This document shows positions 1,171 through 30,129 of a stretch of DNA of 43,241 nt, one piece after another; within the stretch, counting starts at the first letter, position 1, and every line of letters begins with the position of its first letter. Origin of the DNA: a virus; UHGV virus genome UHGV-0383738; one strand, given 5' to 3'. Made by a program: the position numbers and the translations under genes. The notes below the pieces were generated by a model that was given only the letters and a program-made list of their open reading frames with translations, made no database searches and was not told the origin of the DNA.

Positions 1171-1356
1171 TTAAGAAATAAGCTTGTCCACTTTGACTTT
1201 TAAAACATCTGCAACCGCTTTAAGGCTTTTTACAGTCGGACTTGAATCATTCCATTTGCTAATAGCACCGTTTTTAAGTCCAGCAGTTGTTTCTACTTGT
1301 CGAACACTAATACCTTTTTCTTCACATATTGCTTTAATCCTATCGTAAATCAGCAA
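1171..1356 (-). CDS. Cro-like XRE-family HTH regulator (61 aa, TTG start). It is the first gene of the leftward early transcript.
   Basis: HTH_3-type sequence (ICEEKGISVRQVETTAGLKNGAISKWNDSSPTVKSLKAVADVL). RBS AAGGAGG lies 8 nt before the TTG. It is divergent from the CI-like gene across an operator-rich intergenic region. Confidence 0.7.
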   Translation of the reverse strand: MLIYDRIKAICEEKGISVRQVETTAGLKNGAISKWNDSSPTVKSLKAVADVLKVKVDKLIS

Positions 1357-1374
1357 CTTATATCCTCCTTTCTT

Positions 1375-1390
1375 TTAGAAAAAATTCTAC
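1375..1390. promoter_or_regulatory. Operator copy 1 (TTAGAAAAAATTCTAC), a palindromic half-site pair TAGAA/TTCTA.
   Basis: 16-bp near-palindrome seen directly. It matches copies 2 and 3 at 15/16 positions and abuts the -35 of the rightward promoter. Confidence 0.55.
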
Positions 1391-1398
1391 CTTATATA

Positions 1399-1427
1399 TT
1401 GACATGATGTAGATTTTATTCTATAAT
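1399..1427 (+). promoter_or_regulatory. Sigma-A-type promoter for the lysogeny operon (TTGACA, 17-nt spacer, TATAAT).
   Basis: TTGACA at 1399-1404 and TATAAT at 1422-1427 with exactly 17 nt between them. Confidence 0.6.
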
Positions 1428-1468
1428 CAAGTTACCAGCAAAATCATAGACAACATCAAAATCTGTAT

Positions 1469-1484
1469 TTTACATTTGGTAGAA
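1469..1484. promoter_or_regulatory. Operator copy 2 (GTAGAATTTTTTCTAC), a perfect half-site palindrome.
   Basis: Seen directly. GTAGAA and TTCTAC are reverse complements. Confidence 0.55.
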
Positions 1485-1544
1485 TTTTTTCTACTCCATA
1501 TATCTGTATTATACAGACTATATTCTATGTTGTCAATAGTTTTT

Positions 1545-1560
1545 GTAGACTTTTTTCTAC
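1545..1560. promoter_or_regulatory. Operator copy 3 (GTAGACTTTTTTCTAC), overlapping the leader/RBS region of the CI-like gene.
   Basis: Matches copy 2 at 15/16 positions. It lies 8 nt upstream of the AGGAGG RBS of the 1579 gene. Confidence 0.55.
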
Positions 1561-1578
1561 TTTTATTAGGAGGCCACC

Positions 1579-1959
1579 ATGACAACATATGATATAATTT
1601 CTGACCTTTGCAAACAACGCGGAATTGCGATTACGGCCTTAGAAAAGGAATTGGGATTTGGAAGGGGGTATATTGGTAAATTTAAGACCAGAGGCACAAG
1701 CCCGACAATAAAAAAACTCCAACAAATAGCTGACTATTTTGGAGTGTCGGTCAATGATTTAATGCCCGGAAACGAGAAAGCAGAAGCTGACAGATACTAT
1801 ATCAATCCAGAAACTGCGGCCATAGCACAAGACATTTTCGAGAATAAAGAACTGCGTCTGCTATTCGATGCTGCCAGGGATGCAACGGTAGATGATTTGA
1901 AAACTACACATGATATGCTTTTAGCTTTGAAAAGAAAGGAACGAGGCAATGTCGATTGA
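1579..1959 (+). CDS. CI-like phage repressor (126 aa) with an N-terminal XRE HTH plus a C-terminal oligomerisation-type extension.
   Basis: HTH_3 motif (LCKQRGIAITALEKELGFGRGYIGKFKTRGTSPTIKKLQQIADYFGVSVNDL). RBS AGGAGG. It is the first gene of the plus-strand operon that ends with the integrase. Confidence 0.7.
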   Translation: MTTYDIISDLCKQRGIAITALEKELGFGRGYIGKFKTRGTSPTIKKLQQIADYFGVSVNDLMPGNEKAEADRYYINPETAAIAQDIFENKELRLLFDAARDATVDDLKTTHDMLLALKRKERGNVD

Positions 1960-2179
1960 CTACAACGTCCAATTGATTAGCTTTCCATCTGGAAAAATAC
2001 ATGAAGCTGTAACGCCCAATGAGGATGGAACCGTTACTATATTTTTAGATAAAAATGCAACCAGGGAATCTCAAAGACAAAGGTTCTGGCATGTTATGAG
2101 GCACTTAGAGGGAAATGATTTTGAAAAAGATGATGTACAAGATATTGAGTGTGATGCTCATTCTGGAGGAATCTCATGA
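1949..2179 (+). CDS. Small protein (76 aa) translationally coupled on both sides. Function unknown.
   Basis: Overlaps the upstream gene by 11 nt and the downstream gene by ATGA. It contains WHVMRHLEGNDF but no clean HExxH, so an ImmA-like assignment is not supported. Confidence 0.45.
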   Translation: MSIDYNVQLISFPSGKIHEAVTPNEDGTVTIFLDKNATRESQRQRFWHVMRHLEGNDFEKDDVQDIECDAHSGGIS

Positions 2180-3114
2180 GTATTAAAGGAACTACAAAAG
2201 AATGGTACGTGGGGAAAAATAAGTCAACATTATTTAATTGGTCTGGAAAAAGATTGGATTTTAGATACGATGACCTAAATAAAATTACATATTTTTTTGC
2301 CGATAAAACCAGTGTTGGAAATGTTACTTTTATAAAAAAAACGGATGAAAAAATCTTATTTGATTTTAGATATAAATCAAATGATGCTGTACTAAGGGCA
2401 ATTAATTTAATAGAAGAAAACAACCCAAATGTATTATTTCAAAAAGTTGAATCAGTAAAAAGCACTGAGCATACTCAATCAAAATACAAATTATGTAAAT
2501 TCTGCAAGACGGAAATACCAATAAAGGCTACCATATGCCCGAATTGTAAAAAAAGTCAAAACCAAGGTTGTATAATAGTATTTTTATTTATCATACTTTT
2601 TTTAATATTTTTTGCGGTGTTTTCTACATTACTTACAAAGAACAAGACAACTCCCCCAAAAAATAATGATATTATATATCAAAATACTGTTAATGCATCC
2701 TCTGAAACAACCGCTTATGAAGAAGAGACAAATACATTCAATGTAGGAGATTTGTTTGAATCAGAAAAACTTAATATTTCATATTTAGACAGAGGAGACT
2801 ATTCATCAGATAACATGTTTATCGAACCCGCATCTGGAAACAAATTTATTTTTATTGATTTATCAATACAGAATACCGGAGATACAGATTTATCAGTAGG
2901 AAGTACTTCATTTACATGCTATGCTGATGATACCAAATGTTCACAATCGGTTGTTACTGCGGATGACCAAATGGATATTATTGCAACAGTTTCTCCAAAA
3001 AAATATTTAAAAGGAAAAATATATTTTGAAGTTCCAAAAGATTCTCAGAATATAGAGGTTGAATTTGAAACCAGTTTTTGGACACAGGAGAAAATATATT
3101 TCATAGTCAAATAA
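2176..3114 (+). CDS. Membrane protein of 312 aa. It has a cytoplasmic N domain, a zinc ribbon (CKFCK..CPNCK), one TM helix and an extracytoplasmic DUF4352-like Ig-fold domain. It is a candidate lysogenic-conversion or superinfection-exclusion gene.
   Basis: The domain order is read from the translation. The gene is markedly AT-rich relative to its neighbours, so moron-like. It sits between the repressor and integrase genes. Confidence 0.6.
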   Translation: MSIKGTTKEWYVGKNKSTLFNWSGKRLDFRYDDLNKITYFFADKTSVGNVTFIKKTDEKILFDFRYKSNDAVLRAINLIEENNPNVLFQKVESVKSTEHTQSKYKLCKFCKTEIPIKATICPNCKKSQNQGCIIVFLFIILFLIFFAVFSTLLTKNKTTPPKNNDIIYQNTVNASSETTAYEEETNTFNVGDLFESEKLNISYLDRGDYSSDNMFIEPASGNKFIFIDLSIQNTGDTDLSVGSTSFTCYADDTKCSQSVVTADDQMDIIATVSPKKYLKGKIYFEVPKDSQNIEVEFETSFWTQEKIYFIVK

Positions 3115-3279
3115 AACAAAACCGGCTCCTGCGCCAACAGGAACCGGCCCACATACCCGAAGATATGCACTATAATTCGCACCTATATTGTACCATCTTC
3201 GGGGCGGCTTTGCAAGATATTTGCGGAGCTGTATTTTTTATACCCATTTTAGGGAAATCAATTGAAGGAGGAAAGAGAA

Positions 3280-4353
3280 ATGACAAAGAAAGCCCCGAAA
3301 AAGAAAATAGGAGAACTACCGTCTGGAAATGTCCGAGTACAGTTATATTTATATACGGACGAAAAAGGCAAGCGGCATTACAAAAGCTTTGTTGCCGCGT
3401 CACGCAAGGAAGCAAAGGAAATGGCTACCCGATGGAAATTAGATATGAAAGATAAGCCCATAGAGCAATACAATGAACTGGATGAGGACGAGGACGAAGA
3501 TATTACAGTCAATGATGCTATTGAACGCTATTTGAACGTCAAGAGCGGCGTTTTAAGCCCTTCTACGCTTAGAGGGTACACTGGTATGAAAAGACAGTAT
3601 TTCGGCGGCGCATTTGGTCAAAAAAAGCTTTCAGAACTGACAAGTCCATCTGTGCAAATATGGGTAAGTAATTTAGCTGCGAAAAAACTATCTCCAAAGA
3701 CGGTAAGAAATGCCTATGGTCTGTTATCTCCAACACTGGAAATGTTTGCACCCGAATTAACTTTAAACGTTAAACTGCCGCAGAAAAAACGTCCTAACTT
3801 ATATTGCCCCAATGACAATGATATTAAAAAGTTGCTGGACGCTATTAAAGGCACTGATTTGGAGATAGCTGTATTATTGGCTGCGTTTGGTCCACTTAGG
3901 AGAGGGGAGATAAGCGCTCTAACTGATAAGGACGTGGATGAAAAAATTATCCATGTAAGAGATAATATGGTCAAGGGGCCAGACAATCAATGGTACATCA
4001 AACAGCCTAAAACGGATGACAGTGCCCGGGACGTAGAAATGCCAGCATTTGTAATTGACCGGATATCTGAAAAAAAAGGAAAATTGGTTGACATGAACCC
4101 GGATTACATCACACACAGATTCGGACGGGTACTCAAAAAGATTGATATACCCCATTTCCGCTTTCACGACCTCCGGCATTATGCTGCATCCATTATGCAC
4201 GCCATAGGGATACCGGACCAATATATTTTGCAGCGGGGAGGATGGGCCAGCGATAATATCATGAAAACTGTATATAGAAATGCAATTGACTCTGAAACCG
4301 TCCGGCAAAATAAAAAAATTAATAAGCACTTTGAGAAATTGAACAGTATGTAA
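3280..4353 (+). CDS. int: Tyrosine site-specific integrase (the ORF-track TTG at 3262 is probably not the real start; ATG at 3280 sits behind AGGAGG).
   Basis: C-terminal catalytic motifs HDLRHY...GGW...VYRN (R-H-R-Y tyrosine recombinase signature), N-terminal SAM-like domain, and position next to attP. Confidence 0.9.
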   Translation: MTKKAPKKKIGELPSGNVRVQLYLYTDEKGKRHYKSFVAASRKEAKEMATRWKLDMKDKPIEQYNELDEDEDEDITVNDAIERYLNVKSGVLSPSTLRGYTGMKRQYFGGAFGQKKLSELTSPSVQIWVSNLAAKKLSPKTVRNAYGLLSPTLEMFAPELTLNVKLPQKKRPNLYCPNDNDIKKLLDAIKGTDLEIAVLLAAFGPLRRGEISALTDKDVDEKIIHVRDNMVKGPDNQWYIKQPKTDDSARDVEMPAFVIDRISEKKGKLVDMNPDYITHRFGRVLKKIDIPHFRFHDLRHYAASIMHAIGIPDQYILQRGGWASDNIMKTVYRNAIDSETVRQNKKINKHFEKLNSM

Positions 4354-19591: not shown

Positions 19592-19790
19592 TGATGCTTC
19601 TCCTTTTCCGTTATTAGGTTATTTGTAGGTGTGTAACCGTCCACCAACGGTTGCCATTTTGTAGGACTTGACTTGTCCAAAAACGCACATGCCGGAAATT
19701 GCATCCGCTTTTCAACCTCCAGGCTGTTCACGCTATGCGCTAGAACCTGTTTCTTTTAAGGACATGTGCTATAGGAGGGAGGTCAAATAT

Positions 19791-27819: not shown

Positions 27820-28041
27820 TCACCTGTATTTTGCACAATTTTCAATGTAGCTCAAGGGCAACAATACCGATTGTTCCCTTAATATCTGTCTCTGCAATCC
27901 TTTAGGTGTATAGACGCAGTTTGATGTTAGTTCATTTATTCCTTGCCGTATAACGCATTCCTCTGTGTATGAATGACCAGGGGAAATATCAACATGCTTT
28001 TCCAAAAATTGTCCTATTCGTTTTTTGCTATATTCTGTCAT
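27820..28041 (-). CDS. Hypothetical small protein between terminase and portal (73 aa).
   Basis: ATGA-coupled to the terminase stop. Confidence 0.45.
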   Translation of the reverse strand: MTEYSKKRIGQFLEKHVDISPGHSYTEECVIRQGINELTSNCVYTPKGLQRQILREQSVLLPLSYIENCAKYR

Positions 28042-28868
28042 GCACTGTTCCCCCTTCTCATTGATAATGGGCTTGTGGCATAGCGGAGTGCATCAATCCA
28101 GTGGTCATTTCCGTCTGGGTAATCCGAAATCACCTCACCGTTGCTGTCTACCTCATGCTCATATTCTATGATTTCCTTGTATGCTCGCGGTGTACGCGCC
28201 GGGTCTATAACGATTGTACGGCATTGCAACCATTCAAATGTATATTTTCTGCTTCCAGGTCCAGCAGATGCATCCCTGGCCGGAAGTCCCGCATCTCGAA
28301 AATCTATAACAAATTCATCATCATCCAATCCGCAGTATATCATATAGTCATCGTATCCAGCTTTTTTGATTTGTTTTGCCATTTCTTTTACTCGGATTTT
28401 GCATCCTCCCAATTCGTCTAATAAGATAATTTTTTCTTTGTTTGGCACATAAGCTGCACGAATAAATGCTTTAGGGTCAGGCCACCATCCCCAGTCCTGC
28501 CCTTGATATATGCTTTCGTATTTCTGTATTTCTTCATCCGTGATTGGTCTAATCTCCAGCATATCAAATATATTTGTACCAAGTCCAACCGGCAAGCCTA
28601 AATACTCGTGGTTGTATGCCCGCTCATTAGTGGCTTTAAGATGTTCAGCGCGCTCAATAAACATTTCCCCCAGCCATTCTGCCGGAACAGAACGGTAATC
28701 GCTTTTATGCCTGTATGCGCTGTCATCCGGCGTATTTACATACTGATTCGCCCAGTTGCTTTGACTGATAGGCGGATTAAAGGATTTAAATACAACAAAC
28801 TTGCTGCCACCACGCAATACTGACTGTTCAACAGTTCGTATTTCATCCGGTCCTGCAAATTCGTCCAG
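28038..28868 (-). CDS. terL: Terminase large subunit, C-terminal part (exon 2: remainder of the ATPase plus the RNaseH-like nuclease domain). The ORF-track TTG at 28817 is internal.
   Basis: The frame is open upstream to 28883. The translation reads ...L DEFAGPDEIRTVEQSVLRGGSKFVVFKSFNP... and later GNDHWIDALRYA (terminase nuclease motif). The DEF completes the Walker B LWL|DEF that is split from exon 1. Confidence 0.75.
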   Translation of the reverse strand: MDEFAGPDEIRTVEQSVLRGGSKFVVFKSFNPPISQSNWANQYVNTPDDSAYRHKSDYRSVPAEWLGEMFIERAEHLKATNERAYNHEYLGLPVGLGTNIFDMLEIRPITDEEIQKYESIYQGQDWGWWPDPKAFIRAAYVPNKEKIILLDELGGCKIRVKEMAKQIKKAGYDDYMIYCGLDDDEFVIDFRDAGLPARDASAGPGSRKYTFEWLQCRTIVIDPARTPRAYKEIIEYEHEVDSNGEVISDYPDGNDHWIDALRYATSPLSMRRGNSA

Positions 28869-29724
28869 TTCTTCACAATTTTGTTACGCATATACCGTTT
28901 CCGTATACACTCACCATATTACTATGGTGTTCAGACTATATCATGTAAATGGAATCTGTTACCAATTCCACTCACCCCACTTTTTCAACCTCACTCGAGG
29001 CTTACTCTACTCGTTCTCAGTTATAGATTTCTCTATAACCTACCTTTCGATAGTCGTTGCACATTATTATTCGACATTCTTATAGCTTTTTCTTCTTACG
29101 CATTTATCAATTACAGAAGGACTTACATTATATTTTTTTGCTAGAGCGTTCATTCCAAACTCTTTATCATGTCCCTTATAAATTCTGCGAATTTCTCTCA
29201 CTTCATCTTCGCTCAAAACATGATTCCCTTGTAAATATCCTCGAACTGGCTTTTTTAAGCCATTTGCATAAGCATGCTGCATTTGCTCCTCGCGGGTAGC
29301 CCATTCTAAATTGTCTGCGTTGTTATTGGATTTATCTCCATCAATGTGATTAACTGTAGGTTTATTTTCTGGGTTATTAACAAAAGCCTCAGCCACAAGC
29401 CTATTTGCTCGCTTTGTGTACTGTTTGCCATTCATGCACAAGTTGTACCATACATAACCATCATGCGATACTCTTTGCTTTAAAATGACTTCTCGGCCAT
29501 GCTTATGGCTTTTTACCCTTCCTGTATTGCTAATCTCATAGTCCTCAAACCCTTTAATAATTCTCCAAATTTCTTTCATGGTATTTTCTCCTTAAATTCG
29601 TTTATTATATTGTACCATAAAAGATGAATTTATTAAATATTATGTCGAATAATCTTTGCTCAGGATTGTCCTATTTTGTAGGAGTTTCCCTGAATTTAAT
29701 GGGTTTAACGTGGTCAGAAGTGTT
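28869..29724 (-). mobile_element. Probable group I intron (about 0.85 kb) carrying an HNH homing-endonuclease ORF, inserted in terL between the LWL and DEF codons.
   Basis: terL is interrupted exactly inside the Walker B motif. The intervening region encodes an HNH_3/NUMOD protein with its own RBS. The predicted 3' end is G immediately before the exon-2 DEF codons. The boundaries are approximate. Confidence 0.55.
29067..29579 (-). CDS. HNH homing endonuclease (NUMOD4-like N-terminus + HNH_3).
   Basis: YEISNTGRVKS ... NHIDGDKSNNNADNLEWATREEQ. RBS AAGGAG. Confidence 0.85.
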   Translation of the reverse strand: MKEIWRIIKGFEDYEISNTGRVKSHKHGREVILKQRVSHDGYVWYNLCMNGKQYTKRANRLVAEAFVNNPENKPTVNHIDGDKSNNNADNLEWATREEQMQHAYANGLKKPVRGYLQGNHVLSEDEVREIRRIYKGHDKEFGMNALAKKYNVSPSVIDKCVRRKSYKNVE

Positions 29725-30129
29725 TAACCACAAATATTTGAAGTATCCCTTACTAGCTTTAATTGACTTTGTTTTCTTTGCCTTGTCAAGTCCACGGAAT
29801 ATTATCTTTTGTCCTGTCGGCTTATAAACAAATCGGTATGGGCTTGTACGGGATTCCCATAATTCCGTTACTCCCAGTGCATCTATGGCCCATTGTATCT
29901 GCTCAAATACTGATTCCCCAATTGTAACAGCGTACTTTCGGAATATAACAGCATTGGACTCTGGGTCATCCATTATTCCCAGTACGATTTCCCCGGATAT
30001 AAAAGAGGACTTCGCGGAACCTCGCCCACCATACAGGTCATAATATGTATGGTTTCCTTCCAGGATATCCCAGTGAACACCATAGAATGAAGGGGCGATT
30101 ACATCAGTCAGATTTATTATGTCACTCAT
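29671..30129 (-). CDS. terL: Terminase large subunit, N-terminal ATPase part (exon 1). The true coding sequence probably ends near 29725; the last ~17 codons are intron read-through.
   Basis: Walker A YGGRGSAKS. It ends ...KGYFKYLWL then NTSDHVKPIKFRETPTK*. Confidence 0.8.
   Translation of the reverse strand: MSDIINLTDVIAPSFYGVHWDILEGNHTYYDLYGGRGSAKSSFISGEIVLGIMDDPESNAVIFRKYAVTIGESVFEQIQWAIDALGVTELWESRTSPYRFVYKPTGQKIIFRGLDKAKKTKSIKASKGYFKYLWLNTSDHVKPIKFRETPTK

Follow-up and report, generated by a model that had tools for sequence, protein, structure and literature searches.

A probable mobile group I intron with a homing endonuclease gene in the Walker B motif of a prophage terminase large-subunit gene

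When the gene for the large subunit of a phage terminase (terL) is found in two pieces with an endonuclease gene between them, the question arises whether two separate polypeptides are made or whether one gene is restored by splicing of its RNA. This is the situation in UHGV virus genome UHGV-0383738, a stretch of 43,241 nucleotides (nt) that was analysed as a whole and is referred to below as the window. Here, terL occupies positions 30129..28038 and is interrupted by an insertion of 850 nt; like all genes of the region it lies on the minus strand, and this strand is meant for all window positions given below. An earlier note on this DNA had read the insertion, which it placed in the Walker B motif of terL, as a probable group I intron bearing an HNH homing endonuclease. 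This proposal is supported by the precision of the insertion, by the helices P1 and P10 and a terminal guanosine (omega-G), by matches to the Rfam group I intron model, and by covariation. The evidence supports a single terL gene into which a mobile group I intron has inserted; the probability that this is a functional intron carrying a homing endonuclease can be put at about 0.9, with splicing deduced from the sequence.

The first piece of terL is an open reading frame (ORF) at 30129..29671 that encodes 152 amino acids (aa). Its sequence is at first that of a terminase large subunit, with the Walker A motif YGGRGSAKS, and it runs past KYLWL to a stop codon, the C-terminal end being ...KYLWLNTSDHVKPIKFRETPTK. 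The second is a downstream terL frame that continues to 28038 via KSFNPP and GNDHWIDALRYA. Both pieces are present as the earlier note had described them, the second passing through an FNP motif toward the nuclease region, and the same holds for an intervening NUMOD/HNH_3 ORF with its own AAGGAG sequence. The note was mistaken about the junction, where it had joined LWL to DEF. Such a junction would put the 5' splice site after an A and remove F135, E136 and E137, and it is contradicted by two independent comparisons. The first is the alignment with uninterrupted terL homologues, already suggested in the note, which fixed the exact splice sites; the spliced TerL aligns with 10 full-length homologues (76-91% identity) with zero gaps, and W134, E136, E137, L138, D139 and E140 are invariant. 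The second is an intron-less DNA allele (L001; labels of this form denote the sequences compared), which is colinear across the site, with query base 404 aligned to its position 3440 and base 1256 to 3442, and which reads CTATGGTTCGAGGAACTGGAC.

The junction is TGG TT/T GAA GAA, with the slash marking the point of insertion. Exon 1 (29726..30129) comprises codons 1-134 and the first two bases of Phe135; it contains the Walker A motif GGRGSAKS and has the 3' end ...TTG TGG TT. After the intron (29725..28876), exon 2 (28038..28875) opens with U GAA GAA CUG GAC GAA UUU, that is, the third base of Phe135 followed by EELDEF, and ends at the stop codon. The insertion lies within the Phe135 codon (TT/T), in the Walker B motif YLWF-EE and directly ahead of glutamates E136 and E137. 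The flanking bases differ at each boundary, so that the intron boundaries cannot slide. For the ligated exons, the predicted junction sequence is ...TTGTGGTT followed by TGAAGAACTG.

In-silico splicing yields a protein of 413 aa that reads KYLWFEELDEF across the junction. It has a single Pfam Terminase_3 match that extends over the junction (residues 27-228, E=2.3e-37, 128.9 bits, cut-off 23.2); Terminase_3C scores 19.5 bits, under its cut-off of 26.7, and close homologues carry PF17288. The Terminase_3 match and the gap-free alignment together go well past anything that chance would give. The predicted spliced product can be assigned to the large terminase subunits of the PBSX/Terminase_3 family, with a Walker A and Walker B ATPase and a C-terminal nuclease domain. 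The unspliced RNA offers no equivalent. Its exon-1 frame is closed 18 codons inside the intron by an in-frame UAG (29671..29673), which lies on the 3' strand of helix P5, so that the 152-aa product would be without the Walker B glutamates. Read upstream, the exon-2 frame is a stop codon followed by QNCEELDEFAGPDE; it is open from 28883 (QNCEELDEF...), and no ATG, GTG or TTG start is found between the upstream in-frame stop at 28886-28884 and a TTG at 28817, which is 20 codons beyond the Walker B glutamates. Since the exon-1 ORF stops in P5 without E136 and E137, and the first exon-2 start comes 20 codons past them, neither unspliced product would be a working ATPase.

The 850-nt insertion (28876..29725) has the 5' end AAACACUUCUGACCAC and the 3' end ...AACAAAAUUG, with omega-G at 28876. 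The fold range suggested in the earlier note, 28869..29724, does contain a group I structure; its ends are off by 1 nt on the 5' side and by 7 nt on the 3' side. The 5' splice site is defined by P1, in which the last 6 nt of exon 1 (GUGGUU, 29731..29726) pair with the internal guide GACCAC (29715-29710, intron positions 11-16) and a U.G wobble falls exactly at the splice site. This pair is U.G in 8/8 sequences, the terminal G is found in 9/9, and the opening P1 pair varies in step with the exon (GC in four sequences, AU in three, UA in one). Just 5' of the internal guide, the P10 guide CUUC (29720-29717) pairs with GAAG of exon 2 (28874-28871, exon positions 2-5). In two relatives (L054 and L023), intron positions ~1-35 form an additional P1-loop hairpin (GAAG...CUUC) that uses the same CUUC due to form P10; the hairpin may thus be a competing pairing, in rivalry with the docking of exon 2.

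The ribozyme itself is in two halves. The 5' half (29642..29720) is delineated by an Rfam fragment, pair statistics, RNAalifold and the minimum-free-energy fold. It contributes the 5' strand of P3 (CCCAUU 29703-29698, pairing with AGUGGG 28981-28976), all of P4 (UCAGGG 29693-29688 with UCCUGA 29665-29660) and P5 (UCCUA 29683-29679 with UAGGA 29673-29669), and the 5' strands of P6 (GCA 29659-29657 with UGU 29063-29061) and of the 12-base-pair (bp) P6a (AUUAUUCGACAU 29653-29642 with AUGUCGAAUAAU 29077-29066, the latter strand containing the endonuclease stop codon). The 3' half (28888..29077) likewise has an Rfam fragment, and shows compensatory changes in P6a, P7.1, P7.2, P8, P9 and P9.1. Here, the 5' strand of P7 (GACUA, 29055-29051) is followed by P7.1 (29039-29032 with 29027-29020) and P7.2 (29002-28997 with 28992-28987); after the 3' strand of P3 come P8 (28974-28965 with 28955-28946), J8/7 together with the 3' strand of P7 (ACAUGAUAUAGUC, 28946-28934), P9 (28929-28923 with 28918-28912) and P9.1 (28910-28903 with 28895-28888). 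The endonuclease gene sits in the terminal loop of P6a, as is seen when the ORF-less L054 is compared with its endonuclease-bearing twin L023, and also from L093 and L086. A local hairpin AAAGAU...AUCUUU (29656-29619) had been considered for P6a, with the ORF in J6/7; the same comparisons, in which a long-range P6a encloses the ORF, ruled it out.

How well this structure is supported was assessed with covariance models and with comparative data. For the Rfam model RF00028 (Intron_gpI), the gathering score is 50 bits. A permissive scan finds two Intron_gpI fragments that flank the endonuclease gene on the correct strand: 29610-29693 (22.3 bits, model positions 60-142), which covers the P4-P6 part, and 28912-29059 (29.5 bits, E=4e-5), which covers the J8/7-P7-P9 part. 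The match is split into two sub-threshold fragments because the 513-nt endonuclease ORF and its leader break the model, and ORF-less relatives at the same terL site pass Rfam over their full length (L041, 67.2 bits; L054, 65.0 bits). The Rfam alignments of the two highest-scoring matches, which both come from L020, show additional helices after P7, inserted ahead of the 3' strand of P3.

The comparative data come from an alignment (A2) of nine sequences, in-silico ORF-deleted cores among them, for which a hand-drawn structure comprising P1, P3, P4, P5, P6, P6a, P7 (as a pseudoknot), P7.1, P7.2, P8, P9, P9.1 and P10 was scored. Standard pairs occupy 94.9% of cells, compared with 36-45% in controls whose pairing partners were shifted by 1-3 columns, and both sides have changed in 49/86 pairs, compared with 9-13 in the slid controls. 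When the alignment is shuffled, the observed value is reached by 0/500 shuffles on four of five measures and by 3/500 on the fifth (further standard pair types). Compensatory pairs are found in P8 (10/10), P9.1 (7/8), P9 (6/7), P6a (8/12), P7.1 (6/8), P7.2 (4/6) and P5 (4/5), and there is one each in P1, P3, P6 and P10, the CUUC/GAAG pairing of P10 being present in 96.9% of cells. The J8/7-P7 segment GAUAUAGUC is invariant. RNAalifold independently recovers P1, P3, P4, P5, P6, P6a, P7.1, P7.2, P8, P9 and P9.1, and the minimum-free-energy fold of the ORF-deleted 290-nt core reproduces P3-P6a, P7.1, P7.2, P8, P9 and P9.1, with z=-7.6. The earlier note had named a lack of intron secondary structure, together with a lack of spliced mRNA, as the outcome that would speak for a terminase genuinely split in two; a covarying group I core is present.

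Several points count against a group I intron at this site. On the whole window, Rfam at its gathering score gives no intron match, and each of the two fragments lies below 50 bits. P3 is backed by a single compensatory pair, and on P4 and P7, which are invariant in A2, covariation is silent. The P6a segments were hand-picked for complementarity when the ORFs were deleted, which favours pairing in P6a; the naturally ORF-less L041 and L054 do have a hairpin at this position. Finally, P2 was sought in the intron and none is evident. The intron can be described as a phage IA-like type, in which P7.1 and P7.2 are additional helices that separate P7 from the 3' strand of P3, a subgroup assignment that is only approximate because there is no obvious P2. 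Phage IA-type introns have P7.1 and P7.2 after P7, and in the T4 td intron the endonuclease ORF is looped out of P6. Compared with the td and Twort introns (IA2), the extra helices are likewise placed between P7 and the 3' strand of P3, and the ORF is similarly set in a loop, that of P6a; the differences are that P2 is not evident and that there is no direct sequence match.

The gene carried in the P6a loop (29067..29579) encodes a protein of 170 aa that comprises NUMOD4, HNH_3 and a C-terminal helix-turn-helix (HTH)-like region, the last as a weak match. Both Pfam matches are above their cut-offs (NUMOD4, 47.5 bits, 2.2e-12, cut-off 23.4; HNH_3, 38.4 bits, 9.6e-10, cut-off 24.8), and the ribosome-binding site AAGGAG is at 29593-29588, upstream of the ATG. 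The protein falls into PHROG 59, 'HNH endonuclease' (6.8e-52), the cluster listed for intron-encoded HNH/NUMOD4 enzymes in Bastillevirinae (PMC11878797). It is homologous to I-HmuI (PDB 1U3E; E=1.3e-14, residues 5-107 aligned), with VNHIDGDKSNNNADNLEW corresponding to VDHKDGNKDNNLSTNLRW in I-HmuI and the H...N...N motif conserved. Within the P6a loop, at a distance of 38 nt ahead of the ATG of the endonuclease gene, is an extended -10-like sequence, TGGTACAAT (29609..29617); it belongs to a promoter-scan site at 29636..29609 with TG before the -10. The element TGGTAyAAT/TGGTATACT is kept 38-47 nt upstream of the start in 6/7 endonuclease-bearing lineages, including the equivalents in L008, L010, L023, L086 and L095, and the count of promoter-scan sites in the region is not above chance. 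Its conservation suggests that the endonuclease gene may have a promoter of its own.

The distribution of the element bears on its mobility. With exact-pattern scans, the 850-nt element is found again, inserted at the identical position, in IMG/VR contigs (L003-L006, L008 and L009), in a metagenome-assembled genome of an uncultured Dorea sp. (L011), and in metagenome contigs (L084, L088-L090). At the W-F/EE site there are also diverged relatives. Those without an ORF measure 256 nt (L041) and 334 nt (L054); those with a NUMOD4/HNH gene (L023, L086 and L093) measure 843-874 nt, L010 is a truncated copy, and L095 represents a further ORF-containing lineage. Two matches to the pattern AAACCCATNAAATTCAGGG, in L082 and L083, are chance matches, both without an intron core. 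The element is common in public gut data: 752 contigs encode precisely this endonuclease protein, and 132 contigs have precisely this truncated ORF of exon 1 plus its intron tail. The source names include 'NUMOD4 domain-containing protein [Enterocloster]' and 'PBSX family phage terminase large subunit', and among the names seen there is no flag for an intron.

In seven other contigs, the intron is identical to that of the window at 850/850 positions, while their exon 2 differs from that of the window at 136-150/838 positions (~17%). Exon 1 differs in these contigs at 0-52/404 positions, counting full-length exon 1 only. Where the exon flanks diverge, identity lasts for 54-81 nt upstream and 30-96 nt downstream until the first mismatch. 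For L008 and L009, identity reaches 95% in the intron, against an average of ~80% over the whole region of terL plus intron. Homing driven by an endonuclease is expected to leave just such a trace, namely an intron far better conserved than its host gene and flanked by short co-converted stretches. An identical intron in terL genes whose exon 2 has diverged by ~17% indicates recent horizontal spread, and the pattern in the population agrees with homing that still goes on among prophages of Lachnospiraceae. As a separate observation, exon 1 of the window is 100% identical to that of L003 and L090, and its exon 2 is ~17% different from that of every other carrier compared (L003, L090, L005, L006 and L011); terL may accordingly be a mosaic, with a recombination breakpoint that coincides with the intron or lies shortly downstream of it.

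Group I introns in terL are known from several phages, namely Lactobacillus phage LL-H (Mikkonen & Alatossava 1995, as cited in PMC4299906), the Bacillus megaterium phage Moonbeam (PMC4299906), and Streptococcus thermophilus phage 2972 with the related prophage TP1-M17PTZA496 (PMC6356513). Among Bastillevirinae, 5/52 terL genes have an intron, and the TerL intron of SIOphi splices both in vitro and in vivo (PMC11878797). According to the same study, ribozyme cores in this group are broken by nuclease-coding loops, with partial model matches on either side; some phage group I introns splice in vivo yet fail to self-splice in vitro; and the phage 'IA2' subgroup is heterogeneous (PMC11878797). 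These cases share with the present one the host gene, the type of element and, usually, an embedded homing endonuclease, and in Bastillevirinae the nuclease-coding loop interrupts the ribozyme as it does here. The phage group is another one, the present intron being in a temperate phage of the PBSX/Terminase_3 type from gut Lachnospiraceae. Moreover, the terL introns of Bastillevirinae mostly carry a VSR-like 'HNH' (PHROG 559), whereas the present enzyme is in PHROG 59 (PMC11878797). BLAST of the 3' ribozyme half detects no DNA similarity to LL-H, 2972 or SIOphi, and BLAST of the whole region against cultured phages gives no full-length match. The SPO1 DNA-polymerase intron with I-HmuI resembles the present element in being a phage group I intron with a homologous endonuclease; its host gene and ribozyme lineage are different. 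One further paper (PMC7431792) was set aside as irrelevant, its only contact being through a BLAST table.

Against cultured phages, the 3' ribozyme half matches only PMQ04/CPQ4 and LBR48. The Clostridium perfringens phages vB_CpeP_PMQ04 (L095, MZ995505 27210-29277) and CPQ4 (MZ401006) have the identical site, GTG TGG TT/T GAA GAG (W-F/EELDQF), the same P1 (GUGGUU/GACCAC), and the same type of endonuclease (NUMOD4-HNH) in the same loop. Their 3' ribozyme half is related (78.6% identity over 70 nt); intron lineage and host differ. Lactobacillus phage LBR48 (L096, GU967410 24299-26438) has a related intron at a different terL site, FRGL/DD, upstream of Walker B, so that the intron family targets at least two conserved terL motifs. 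Introns at the FRGL/DD site also occur in L021, L073, L036 and L063, with the 3' end ...CAACAAAATG followed by TAGATGATC or TGGATGATC. In the GenBank records of PMQ04, CPQ4 and LBR48, two 'terminase large subunit' coding sequences are given with the endonuclease between them, annotated as 'NUMOD4 motif-containing HNH endonuclease' in PMQ04/CPQ4, and an intron feature is absent.

Put together, these data allow a mechanism to be proposed. In the precursor RNA, GUGGUU at the end of exon 1 would pair with the guide GACCAC and so place the U.G wobble at the 5' splice site, which an external guanosine bound in P7 would attack. The guide would then align exon 2 through P10 (CUUC/GAAG) while the terminal G at 28876 enters the guanosine site. 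Ligation to TGG TTT GAA GAA would restore the 413-aa TerL with its Walker B motif YLWFEE intact. The endonuclease would account for the mobility. I-HmuI is a strand-specific nickase, and an I-HmuI-like NUMOD4/HNH enzyme is expected to nick or cut intron-less terL near the W-F-E-E site when phages co-infect or coexist in polylysogens; the intron and short exon flanks would then be copied into that allele by recombinational repair, in other words by homing. The anatomy with its exact insertion site, the covarying ribozyme structure, the family of the endonuclease and a population pattern typical of a mobile element are established by the data. Catalytic activity in vivo, the target and cleavage mode of the endonuclease, and its promoter are what we infer from the sequence.

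The alternative that survives best is that the insertion is a group I intron by descent that has lost splicing, leaving terL a pseudogene in a defective prophage. The missing P2, a P10 of only 4 bp, and an exon-1 frame that reads 18 codons into the core, where ribosomes could disturb folding, would all fit this view. It is nevertheless unlikely. No element of the core is damaged, nor is the ORF of the endonuclease; both terL exons are open and conserved, the intron is identical in at least seven other contigs, and the exact endonuclease is spread over 752. In addition, base-pairing is kept by compensatory change across lineages, and pairing maintained in this way implies selection on the RNA structure.

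Still less probable is the possibility that terL has been divided by a free-standing endonuclease gene, and that its two parts are translated separately and reassemble as polypeptides into a working terminase without any splicing. Split genes with free-standing endonucleases do exist in T4-like phages; the GenBank records of PMQ04 and LBR48 present their equivalents in just this way, and the window remains below the Rfam gathering score. Under this scheme, however, both products would lack the two invariant glutamates of Walker B, as the exon-1 ORF reads ...KYLWLNTSD... and the first exon-2 start is the TTG at 28817. It leaves aside that ~290 nt of non-coding flanks fold as a covarying group I core, and it cannot explain the ORF-less insertions of 256 nt and 334 nt at the same site, which pass Rfam.

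Inteins are common in terL of other phages. The chance that the insertion is itself an intein, a group II intron (recently reported in phages, PMC12350094) or some other intervening element is negligible, since stop codons in the terL frame and an ORF with its own ribosome-binding site and start do not agree with an in-frame intein, and since there is no reverse transcriptase or maturase and the sole group II match is a chance 18-bit fragment on the other strand.

The genes next to terL are compatible with a phage packaging module. Upstream lies a gene for a 141-aa HTH-like protein, which has weak PHROG matches only and is likely the small terminase. Downstream of terL, beyond a 73-aa ORF, is the portal gene (PHROG 533, 2.1e-93). 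The 73-aa ORF (27820-28041) has a start that overlaps the terL stop codon (ATGA); a PHROG match was sought for it and none was found, and the intron-less relative L001 has a 73-aa gene in the equivalent position. The element that hosts this terL is a temperate phage of the PBSX/Terminase_3 type, a Lachnospiraceae-type prophage.

Other structured RNAs were seen in the course of the Rfam scans. In the window, RAGATH-21 (19684-19770, 83.5 bits, gathering score 70.3) adjoins GP20-b (19615-19678, 40.9 bits, gathering score 36.2) at 19615-19770; both are Rfam motifs above threshold and without known function. Two large phage contigs have clusters of full-length Intron_gpI matches, three within about 1.1 kilobases (kb) in L020 (1640-2767) and four within about 2.8 kb in L060 (8304-11076); these matches span 67-94 bits, and the genes there are very heavily interrupted.

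Beyond self-propagation, the group I intron may have a regulatory side, although this is an outside chance at best: it may couple translation to splicing and, instead of being a neutral passenger, make the production of terminase conditional, in the manner of a switch. The idea is suggested by the exon-1 frame, which extends 18 codons into the core and stops on P5, by the endonuclease stop codon in the P6a stem, and by the apparent promoter of the endonuclease gene. Translation of either ORF would bring ribosomes onto P3-P5 or P6a, which would be unfolded, and splicing would be delayed. If this were true, the supply of TerL, and with it packaging, would be tied to endonuclease expression or to the translation status of the host, and prophages with the intron would be better able to exclude their intron-less relatives in the gut.

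The general knowledge of group I introns, which have been known in phages since the 1990s, is unchanged by this case, and introns of this kind in terL were already known; the element itself is a previously undescribed lineage from Lachnospiraceae prophages. Its recognition as an intron corrects the gene models of terL, which are used as phylogenetic markers for phages and for the prediction of packaging mode, and the ribozyme split by its endonuclease explains why introns that bear an endonuclease are missed by Rfam. A further gain is a well-resolved family, which comprises at least six lineages, some of them with an endonuclease gene and others lacking it, and which targets the codon directly before the Walker B glutamates, and thus provides a clean case of homing elements choosing invariant catalytic sites.

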